Part shown: positions 15,179 to 44,432 of the stretch, one piece after another
Layout: each line of letters begins with the position of its first letter
Position numbering within the stretch: the first letter of the stretch is position 1
IMG/VR virus record: IMGVR_UViG_3300027749_000034
Length of the DNA stretch: 64,000 bases
Reading direction: 5' to 3' (one strand)
DNA from: a virus
Lineage: Duplodnaviria > Caudoviricetes
Notes under the pieces: generated by a model
The model's input: the letters and a program-made list of their open reading frames with translations, nothing else
What the model was told of the DNA's origin: nothing
The model's database searches: none
Translations under genes and position numbers: made by a program

Positions 15179-15203
15179 CAAGCCGATCAAATAAGTATAT
15201 ACT
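15175..15203 (+). promoter_or_regulatory. sigma70-type promoter of tmRNA
   Basis: TTGACA-17-TATACT. Confidence 0.85.
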
Positions 15204-15209
15204 GTAAGT

Positions 15210-15500
15210 TATTGCTGTATGAAGCAAAGAGAAAAGTGTTCTGGACGGGGGTGCGAATCCCCCCAGGTCCACCATAAGCACATAGTTGTCCTAGATGAAA
15301 GAAACCTCTTAGGGCTCTAGTGGGGATTGTGTGCTTTTGATGGGCCTGACCTAGATTCGACAGGGCAACAAGTAACAGAGTGGACAGCACGACAGCGATA
15401 GTCGTAAAAACTAAACAAAAGTAACCGCAAACGACTCACAGTTCGCATTAGCGGCCTAACAGCCACTTAGGGTAAGACATACCTCGTAACAGAAACTCAG
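15210..15500 (+). ncRNA. ssrA: tmRNA, circularly permuted two-piece form
   Basis: T-arm plus CAGGTCC-ACCA (ends 15274) precedes the 5' end GGGCCTG (15342) with G3.U; tag ORF ANDSQFALAA*; ends are approximate. Confidence 0.93.
15427..15459 (+). other. tmRNA proteolysis tag reading frame (ANDSQFALAA*)
   Basis: gca aac gac tca cag ttc gca tta gcg gcc taa. Confidence 0.9.
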
Positions 15501-15528
15501 AAAAGGTTGCTTCGGCAACCTTTTTCTT
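15501..15528 (+). terminator. intrinsic terminator
   Basis: AAAAGGTTGC-TTCG-GCAACCTTTTT. Confidence 0.9.
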
Positions 15529-15576
15529 TATAAGTATTTTTATAATACGAACATTATCACACTAAAGAATATATCA

Positions 15577-39098: not shown

Positions 39099-39183
39099 GG
39101 AGAAGAAGCATCAATGGTGATGCAGTGGACTGTAAATCCGCCGCCTTCGGGCACGACTGGTTCGATCCCAGTATTCTCCACCA
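39099..39183 (+). tRNA. tRNA-Tyr(GTA)
   Basis: Type II cloverleaf, loop CT GTA AA. Confidence 0.95.
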
Positions 39184-42839: not shown

Positions 42840-42892
42840 GTCATTGACAACAGTAGGTTAAATAGTTTATAATAAATTTTACAGAGTAAATT

Positions 42893-43001: not shown

Positions 43002-43166
43002 ATGAAGCCAGGTAAAACATTTCGATTAAGCAAAACAACCAAGCGAATGCTATGTAGCATTGTTGATACAACCAAGCGTAATGCTTGGAAGGCCGCAATG
43101 ATTCAAGCAGAGTTGGCCGCAGGTGTAGTTGTCAAGAGAGAGCCAAAAGAAGGACAGCGTAAGTAA
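43002..43166 (+). CDS. small basic protein (not in ORF track)
   Basis: MKPGKTFRLSKTTKRML...KAAMIQAEL. Confidence 0.65.
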   Translation: MKPGKTFRLSKTTKRMLCSIVDTTKRNAWKAAMIQAELAAGVVVKREPKEGQRK

Positions 43167-43276: not shown

Positions 43277-43498
43277 ATGCCAACAGTCTATACTGAAGTC
43301 GAAGTCGATGTAAGTCTAAGTGATTTTGATACCGAAGATCTAATTGAAGAATTAGAATCTCGAGGTAACTTGCCAATTGAGGGCAATACCGACGCTAAAG
43401 AGCTAGTCGAGTCAATGTATCTAAAGCGTAGAAATGGCAAAGACTACCAGCAAGAGTTGGACCAACTGATTTATCGAGTCCTTGGTAAGATCGTTTAA
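43277..43498 (+). CDS. hypothetical protein
   Basis: 73-aa acidic ORF. Confidence 0.7.
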   Translation: MPTVYTEVEVDVSLSDFDTEDLIEELESRGNLPIEGNTDAKELVESMYLKRRNGKDYQQELDQLIYRVLGKIV

Positions 43499-43508
43499 AT
43501 TGCATCAT

Positions 43509-43583
43509 CTGGCCATAGTACAATGGATAGTACATAGAGCTTCTACCTCTAGAATGTGGGTTCGATTCCTGCTGGCCGGGCCA
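43509..43583 (+). tRNA. tRNA-Arg(TCT)
   Basis: Cloverleaf, loop CT TCT AC. Confidence 0.93.
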
Positions 43584-44432
43584 CTTATTGTTGTAATGTT
43601 TGCAATGCCTGCACAGGCAAAAAAGAAAACAACTGCACCACCTAGCGAACCAGCTCGTGCAGTTTTAGTTTTTAATGCAACAACAGATACACTGGTGCAT
43701 GGTCTAAACATACACGACATCATGCCAATTGCCAGTGTGACAAAATTAATGACTGCATTTGTAGTCTTAGAAAGTCGAGCAGACTTGGATGAAAGATTGC
43801 CAGTTGTACCACAATCAGTGGAAAGTAGCCGTGTTCTCAAGCTTGGTATGATAATTACTCGACGAGAACTACTACACCTTGCACTTGTCTCCAGTGATAA
43901 CCTAGCGGCAAAATTGCTTGCTGTATACCATCCATACGGTTATGATTCATTTGTTCGAGAAATGAATGCCACGGCACAACGCCTGGGAATGAAGAATACA
44001 TCCTATATTGAACCAACTGGACTCCTGTTAAACACCAGTACCGCATGGGATTTACACCTGCTGAATCGTCATCTATCTAAATATACAATTTTCAAAGAAG
44101 CCGCAATGAGCGCAACAGCCAGTGCAGAAGCCCGGACTCGCCGGGGCATATGGCAAAAGTTAGTGATTCGTAACACCAATGCATTTGCAGGAAAATATGA
44201 TATCAAGATTGCCAAAACTGGATTTACTAATCCAGCTGGCTGGTGCATTGACATGCAAGTGCATCATAAGGACCAGGATGTAGATTTTATAGTACTAGGC
44301 TCACCAAGCAAAAAAATACGCAACGAGCTGGTCAGTAAACGATTAAACAATTACATGACTTTCATGACATCTCGATCTATTGTTATTAAAATTGAAGACA
44401 TTGATGATGCAAGTGGATTTATTAATTGGTAA
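43554..44432 (+). CDS. peptidase S11 D-Ala-D-Ala carboxy/endopeptidase (PBP7-like)
   Basis: SVTK, SDN and KTG motifs; start uncertain (43554 in tRNA gives a full signal peptide, 43596 does not). Confidence 0.88.
   Translation: MWVRFLLAGPLIVVMFAMPAQAKKKTTAPPSEPARAVLVFNATTDTLVHGLNIHDIMPIASVTKLMTAFVVLESRADLDERLPVVPQSVESSRVLKLGMIITRRELLHLALVSSDNLAAKLLAVYHPYGYDSFVREMNATAQRLGMKNTSYIEPTGLLLNTSTAWDLHLLNRHLSKYTIFKEAAMSATASAEARTRRGIWQKLVIRNTNAFAGKYDIKIAKTGFTNPAGWCIDMQVHHKDQDVDFIVLGSPSKKIRNELVSKRLNNYMTFMTSRSIVIKIEDIDDASGFINW

Follow-up and report, generated by a model that had tools for sequence, protein, structure and literature searches.

A phage tRNA-Arg(UCU) gene that very probably also encodes the first part of the signal peptide of a PBP7-like endopeptidase

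In a 64,000-nt stretch of DNA from a virus of the Caudoviricetes (IMG/VR record IMGVR_UViG_3300027749_000034; hereafter the window), the reading frame of a predicted cell-wall peptidase very probably has its start within a functional tRNA-Arg(UCU) gene or a few bases upstream of it, so that tRNA nucleotides 46–75 encode the n-region of a Sec signal peptide and the first half of its hydrophobic core. True dual coding, in which the same nucleotides serve both a tRNA and a signal peptide, had been proposed in a sequence-only reading of this DNA. The proposal is supported by covariation within the tRNA, by conservation of the overlap in two reading frames and by compensating lengths of the corresponding signal peptides. 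Further evidence was provided by relatives without the overlap, which possess signal peptides of their own, by loci lacking a start codon behind the tRNA, and by fossil tRNA codons in a decayed locus (L216). The features involved are the following.

42844–42873, plus strand: sigma-70-like promoter with 12 of 12 consensus matches (TTGACA, 18 nt, TATAAT), identified by promoter scan
43277–43498, plus strand: conserved 73-aa ORF (ORF73) with its own AAAGG ribosome-binding site, from the ORF list
43500–43502, plus strand: conserved in-frame TTG, a candidate alternative (coupled) start, separated from the upstream stop by 1 nt and located 9 nt ahead of the tRNA
43509–43583, plus strand: tRNA-Arg(UCU), 75 nt with encoded CCA, identified by ARAGORN, Rfam and covariation
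43554–44432, plus strand: predicted precursor of an S11 (PBP7-like) D,D-endopeptidase, 292 aa when read from the ATG inside the tRNA, identified by ORF list, Pfam, NCBIfam and PDB
43554–43583, plus strand: overlap, in which tRNA nucleotides 46–75 equal codons 1–10 (n-region MWVR and the first six residues of the h-region), from the sequence
43584–43619, plus strand: part of the signal peptide behind the tRNA, 12 hydrophobic codons ending with AQA, from the sequence
43734–43745, plus strand: SxxK active-site motif (SVTK), invariant in the homologue alignment
43893–43901, plus strand: SxN motif (SDN), invariant in the homologue alignment
44214–44222, plus strand: KTG motif, invariant in the homologue alignment

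The ATG at 43554–43556 corresponds to tRNA nucleotides 46–48: its A and T close the variable loop, and its G opens the T-stem. The ten tRNA-encoded codons stop exactly at the CCA, the tenth ending at position 43583, so that the first ten codons indeed represent the 3' part of the tRNA through CCA, as had been claimed. A protein initiated at this ATG has an arginine at residue 4 and an uncharged stretch of 18 residues, with AQA directly followed by KKK (at 43620), ahead of which cleavage is predicted; the highest Kyte-Doolittle mean of the signal over 10 residues is 2.69. The quality of signal peptides was judged by anatomy, that is, by a basic n-region, a hydrophobic core of about 10–15 residues and a small-x-small site, and the anatomy of a Sec (signal peptidase I) signal was obtained only if the tRNA-encoded residues were included. 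The earlier claim that ATG 43554, located at the border of variable loop and T-stem, opens a well-formed Sec signal is thus borne out by the anatomy around AQA/KKK. In-frame ATG codons further downstream occur at 43596 and 43605, and initiation at 43596 leaves only 8 residues ahead of the cleavage motif, the short stub that had been predicted. It had also been stated that no Shine-Dalgarno sequence precedes 43554, and the best duplex with the anti-Shine-Dalgarno sequence was found to reach only -2.1 kcal/mol.

The protein matches Pfam family Peptidase_S11 (PF00768) at an E value of 7.6e-39 over residues 25–251 (134 bits versus a cut-off of 27.6 bits), and PDB entries 6MUQ and 6AZI at E values of about 1e-37. 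The best NCBIfam match, NF008668 (D-Ala-D-Ala endopeptidase, PbpG), scored 173.5 bits, which is below the equivalog cut-off of 294 bits. By these matches, the peptidase is a relative of PbpG and not an equivalog, and endopeptidase activity is predicted. It resembles E. coli PBP7 (PbpG) and the solved relatives PDB 6MUQ and 6AZI in the S11 fold and the SxxK, SxN and KTG motifs, and PBP7-type enzymes in the lack of a PBP5-type C-terminal domain and in the cleavable N-terminal Sec signal of the family. In contrast to PBP7, the enzyme of the window is encoded by a phage, and its signal peptide appears to be written partly in a tRNA gene. Accordingly predicted to be an ordinary PBP7-like endopeptidase, the enzyme is less unusual than the architecture of its gene.

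A homologue search over 5.8 billion proteins yielded 724 homologues. The contigs encoding them reach sizes of 327 kb and 285 kb and originate from lake, marine and other metagenomes, indicating that the homologues stem from large uncultured phages. Relatives were also recovered from IMG/VR by an alignment-based scan, as opposed to a scan with the single protein, which gave none. The metagenome scan provided only 3 close loci, and a blastn search of INPHARED phages returned no close relative, only matches of tRNA size. Among the 120 closest homologues, at least 63 have tRNA-derived N-termini, 45 of them in the frame used in the window (frame A) and 18 in another one (frame C), in which the same T-arm and acceptor strand are read to give an N-terminus of the type GSIP...RR. 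Decayed versions of this frame-C N-terminus occur in 5 more of the 120, and no user of the third frame relative to the tRNA was found among them. At the DNA level, the overlap is present in 22 distinct loci (17 in frame A and 5 in frame C), and its conservation, which the sequence-only reading had left to be looked up in relatives, is thereby established for this set. The comparative data go well beyond a coincidental arrangement. Wherever an overlapped locus was examined at the DNA level, ARAGORN placed tRNA-Arg(tct) at the expected position; in one such scan the tRNA abutted or overlapped the peptidase gene in 11 of 11 overlapped relatives, and the IMG/VR loci that were scanned likewise carry tRNA-Arg(tct) at the peptidase gene.

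In both frames that are used, a start codon is present where variable loop and T-stem meet, and the n-region contains an arginine; in frame C, the start at the junction is GTG or ATG, as set by a base of the T-stem pair. The tRNA supplies only the charged n-region with two arginines in frame C, and adds six hydrophobic residues in frame A. The segment behind the tRNA varies in sequence across the relatives and is always uncharged, with a small-x-small motif followed by lysine. The uncharged stretch encoded after the tRNA has a median length of 12 residues (range 9–15) in frame A versus 15 residues (range 15–17) in frame C (Mann-Whitney p = 9e-10, a statistic that ignores shared ancestry). Inclusion of the tRNA-encoded residues brings the medians to 18 and 17, respectively, with no significant difference from independent signal peptides, whose median is 17. 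As the totals match only with the tRNA-encoded residues, the signal peptides are complete only if the tRNA nucleotides are translated, and by this comparison the part behind the tRNA is fitted to what each tRNA frame supplies. In five loci (L002, L003, L098, L101 and L105), no ATG, GTG or TTG occurs between the end of the tRNA and the mature protein.

Homologues without signal peptides had been raised in the sequence-only reading as grounds for doubt. However, every non-overlapping homologue, including the close relatives L091, L103 and L107–L111 and about 50 more distant phage copies, has an ordinary signal peptide of its own. In L091, an inserted gene separates the tRNA from the peptidase gene. 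In L110, the same tRNA is followed by a 13-nt purine-rich spacer and then by the peptidase's own ATG and signal peptide. The two frame types are intermingled in the tree built from the mature domain, and at least 10 changes are needed to account for their distribution. We rejected ten independent origins as an explanation, because L105 and L122 show replacement of a cassette: their tRNAs are 98% identical and their mature domains are 90–100% identical. The signal segment of about 40 nt (1585–1625 in L105, 1576–1625 in L122) is unalignable between the two loci and is read in a different frame. Signal-peptide cassettes thus appear to have been exchanged by recombination. Given such exchange, neither the two-frame pattern nor the association with an upstream TTG codon described below is phylogenetically independent, and the overlap may have originated independently as few as one or two times.

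The overlap is located in a unit with the order tRNA-Ser(GCU), 54-codon ORF, tRNA-Leu(UAG), 73-codon ORF and tRNA-Arg(UCU)/peptidase, and this order recurs in relatives. The perfect promoter is positioned directly before tRNA-Ser(GCU), which suggests that the host polymerase transcribes this part of the tRNA array together with the interspersed ORFs. No terminator-like site was found on the plus strand between the promoter at 42844 and position 44432. A candidate promoter internal to the tRNA, formed by TTGCAT at 43500 and TACAAT of the D-arm, was rejected on account of its 13-nt spacer, and the promoter scan gave none there. ORF73 had no match in Pfam. Its codon 52, the second arginine codon of a KRR motif, is AGA or AGG in 11 of 12 homologues; a general feedback of tRNA-Arg through upstream AGA codons was nevertheless rejected, since the different upstream ORF of other relatives contains only CGN codons.

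Some further observations concern the surroundings of this unit. ORF73 belongs to a conserved acidic ORF of 73–74 aa that is always located between tRNA-Leu(UAG) and tRNA-Arg(UCU), with homologues in L081 (2721–2945), L083 (2668–2892), L087 (2832–3053) and L002 (96–320). The conserved basic 54-aa ORF between tRNA-Ser and tRNA-Leu (43002–43166, plus strand, in the window) is found directly upstream of tRNA-Arg/peptidase in other relatives (L003, 66–230; L089, 2813–2977; L090, 2835–2999). A 201-aa ORF (L085, 2396–3001; L091, 1805–2410) remains open over the first 15 nt of tRNA-Arg and is terminated by the D-arm TAA, which in L085 overlaps the ATG of the D-loop as TAATG; this ORF may represent a second kind of overlap between an ORF and a tRNA, or an artefact of gene calling. 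In L088 (1–2715), four tandem DUF6492 paralogues precede the block of tRNA-Ser, tRNA-Leu and tRNA-Arg/peptidase.

With regard to the start codon in the window, ATG 43554 is the most likely one by a narrow margin over TTG 43500, and the two may both serve. The ATG provides the best-looking signal, with its arginine at residue 4 and a short n-region. A core Shine-Dalgarno sequence precedes about 29% of the long ORFs in the window compared to a background of 8%; at the peptidase gene, none favours any of the candidate start sites. The position of ATG 43554 in the T-stem of a stably folded tRNA also speaks against it. Folding of the region 43480–43630 did not reproduce the cloverleaf (z = 0.57) and therefore says nothing on the accessibility of the start codons. 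The equivalent of ATG 43554 is ATA in 14 of 66 frame-A sequences, and five more combine ATA with a GTG located two codons before it. Where tRNA positions 46–48 read ATA, initiation must take place elsewhere, at the TTG at -8, at a GTG at -11 or at a near-cognate codon.

It is quite possible, though not the reading that we prefer, that dual coding is maintained and translation begins at TTG 43500. Ribosomes ending the 73-codon ORF would then re-initiate at the TTG and read the whole tRNA, producing a presequence of 40 residues with a long n-region in which ATG 43554 is only an internal methionine codon. Such a TTG is located 9 nt before the tRNA in 15 of the 17 frame-A loci, across different upstream genes, and in none of the 5 frame-C loci (naive Fisher p = 8e-4), an association that could, however, reflect linkage, as tRNA and cassette are inherited together. 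The codon abuts the upstream stop or lies 1 nt from it (TAA at 43496–43498 in the window), the TTG site is unstructured, and the upstream ORF has the AAAGG ribosome-binding site. The TTG is the only canonical start in L002, and the loci without ATG at position 46 all have the TTG, or a GTG at -11 instead. Moreover, no stop interrupts frame A anywhere in the tRNA of any of its users, but the D-arm TAA closes it in every non-user; the frame-C users likewise all have frame C open from the ATG of the D-loop. In contrast, L087 and L088 have no TTG and carry only the ATG at position 46, and the TTG is unusable by the frame-C lineages. TTG is also a weak start, and an n-region of 22 residues with a hydrophobic patch would be atypical for Sec signals. 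Neither the ATG at position 46 nor the TTG alone explains all loci in this set. In the frame that it uses, every locus has at least one canonical start no further downstream than tRNA position 48, and from either start the 3' third of the tRNA would be translated.

We regard a start located behind the tRNA as improbable. If translation were initiated at ATG 43596, at ATG 43605 or at a near-cognate codon past the CCA, no working signal peptide would be formed; the product would act in the cytoplasm, in the virion or after lysis, and the in-frame reading of the tRNA would be a by-product. Initiation inside a folded tRNA would be avoided in this way, gene callers have placed such starts in P0033, P0039–41 and P0069, and there is no Shine-Dalgarno sequence to favour any other site. 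However, at most 8 residues would precede the conserved cleavage motif, the five loci listed above have no canonical start in this region, and the length compensation between the two frames would be left unexplained. In addition, the segment behind the tRNA has stayed hydrophobic, with the small-x-small motif and lysine, despite free drift of its sequence. Every non-overlapping relative is predicted to be secreted by its own signal peptide, and the substrate of PBP-type endopeptidases is periplasmic.

Dual coding also depends on the tRNA being functional. ARAGORN predicted 27 tRNAs in the window, the last of which is tRNA-Arg(tct), and also a tmRNA at 15182–15550. With Rfam model RF00005, tRNA-Arg scored 55.6 bits (gathering score 29), a mid-range value among the neighbouring tRNAs (47–76 bits). 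A weak Rfam tRNA match of 35.3 bits, not called by ARAGORN, was noticed elsewhere in the window at 39099–39180 (plus strand), just before tRNA-Ser(UGA). According to ARAGORN, tRNA-Arg is the only carrier of a UCU anticodon in the tRNA set of the window; AGA is the commonest arginine codon (27%) in the long ORFs, and the tRNA is therefore plausibly needed. An alignment of 21 copies of the tRNA from the window and related phage contigs, 13 of them distinct, was used for covariation analysis. In the 13 distinct sequences, 273 of 273 stem cells are standard pairs, and 11 of the 21 stem pairs exhibit compensatory changes on both sides. The covariation score was matched by none of 500 shuffles, and sliding of the pairing partners abolished the signal. 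T-stem pair 48–64 alternates between G-C and A-U, the latter turning the equivalent of ATG 43554 into ATA, and compensatory changes in the acceptor stem and T-stem convert leucine to histidine or tyrosine in the hydrophobic core of the signal. As these compensatory changes damage the protein reading, the structure of the tRNA appears to dictate and the signal peptide to tolerate. By this covariation, tRNA-Arg(UCU) is a functional gene under structural selection.

That the tRNA is a relic or pseudogene which now serves as coding sequence only, with no real dual function, is hardly tenable: decayed tRNAs with retained codons occur in L216 and probably also in P0104 and P0115, but the cloverleaf is perfect in the window and in 20 other loci through compensatory changes, some of them harmful to the protein reading, and in the window this tRNA is the sole one reading the most used arginine codon by a UCU anticodon. 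In L216, the T-arm of the tRNA is destroyed and ARAGORN calls nothing at this position. The last approximately 20 nt of the old tRNA stay in frame as codons of the n-region, and they follow a new ATG, which shares the sequence ATGA with the stop codon of the upstream gene. About 650 nt upstream of the decayed copy, a different tRNA-Arg(tct) of 78 nt is present (L216, 1172–1249 and 1890–1936). This locus looks like a case of tRNA replacement in which the old 3' end was retained as codons.

In bacteria, the 5' end of a tRNA is produced by RNase P, and the 3' end by an endonucleolytic cut after the CCA and trimming. In the mechanism that we propose for the window, the promoter at 42844 would probably give rise to a precursor of the whole unit in which tRNA and mRNA are joined. 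The signal peptide would start within the tRNA, and the 12 codons past the CCA would supply the remainder of the hydrophobic core and the AQA cleavage site; TTG 43500 would offer a second possible entry, reached by ribosomes that finish the upstream 73-codon ORF. If the 3' end of the tRNA were matured at 43583, the message would lose its start codon and n-region, and the processed transcript would at best yield a protein without an export signal. If, on the other hand, the transcript were translated first, a periplasmic D,D-endopeptidase would be produced and no tRNA. As a cut after the CCA removes start and n-region, mature tRNA and export-competent message would exclude each other on each RNA molecule. 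This mutual exclusivity is a logical deduction for a single RNA molecule, and the start codon used, the co-transcription and the competition between processing and translation are inferred likewise. A rather doubtful extension is that the overlap acts as a regulatory device beyond mere compaction, by which ribosomes on the upstream ORF, with its mostly conserved AGA or AGG at codon 52, would unfold the nascent tRNA-Arg(UCU) and go on to translate the peptidase, and slow decoding would allow the tRNA to fold and to be excised.

Several known systems share individual aspects with this arrangement. In animal mitochondria, tRNA and protein genes on the same strand overlap, usually by a few nucleotides at the gene ends, and the defect is often repaired by polyadenylation or editing. 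As in the window, nucleotides are shared on one transcript and the choice of processing decides which product is complete; unlike in mitochondria, a canonical bacterial-type tRNA would here be read as functional protein codons over 30 nt or over its full 75 nt. The tmRNA similarly combines tRNA-like and messenger roles within one RNA sequence family. There, however, separate segments of one mature molecule act together, whereas here the same nucleotides would give mutually exclusive products. T4-like phages possess mixed clusters of tRNAs and ORFs that are processed by RNase P and RNase E, and small phages overprint their genes. Reuse of sequence and the cutting of tRNAs out of ORF-bearing transcripts are common to these cases and the present one; overprinting in small phages, however, sets protein on protein and not a tRNA gene together with a protein, and we know of no ORF in a T4 cluster with its start inside a tRNA. 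Finally, viral attP sites carry a fragment of a tRNA gene inside an integrase ORF, as in SSV1. In this case too, a translated stretch is identical to part of a tRNA gene, but the fragment is not a functional viral tRNA gene and serves recombination, whereas in the window the tRNA is complete and evidently functional, and the shared part is predicted to encode an export signal. In none of the systems compared does a complete tRNA gene under selection encode a functional segment of a protein with its 3' third or with more of its length. We found no description of an overlap between a tRNA and a signal peptide in the full-text literature, the collection being limited and the result no proof of novelty.

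The overlap provides a well-supported natural case of a canonical, selected tRNA gene that is also read as protein. That two frames of the same tRNA 3' end both work indicates how little information suffices for a signal peptide. There are consequences for annotation as well: at least 14 of the 120 closest database entries were called with a truncated start and lose the signal peptide, as pipelines that forbid overlaps of CDS and tRNA truncate such genes, and the proteins would be mislocalised in silico. In the large freshwater phages of this widespread group, the arrangement would tie the maturation of a tRNA to how much of an exported cell-wall enzyme is made. If the regulatory reading is true, the phage would trade off, one molecule at a time, its supply of tRNA-Arg and the dose of a wall-loosening enzyme in the periplasm.
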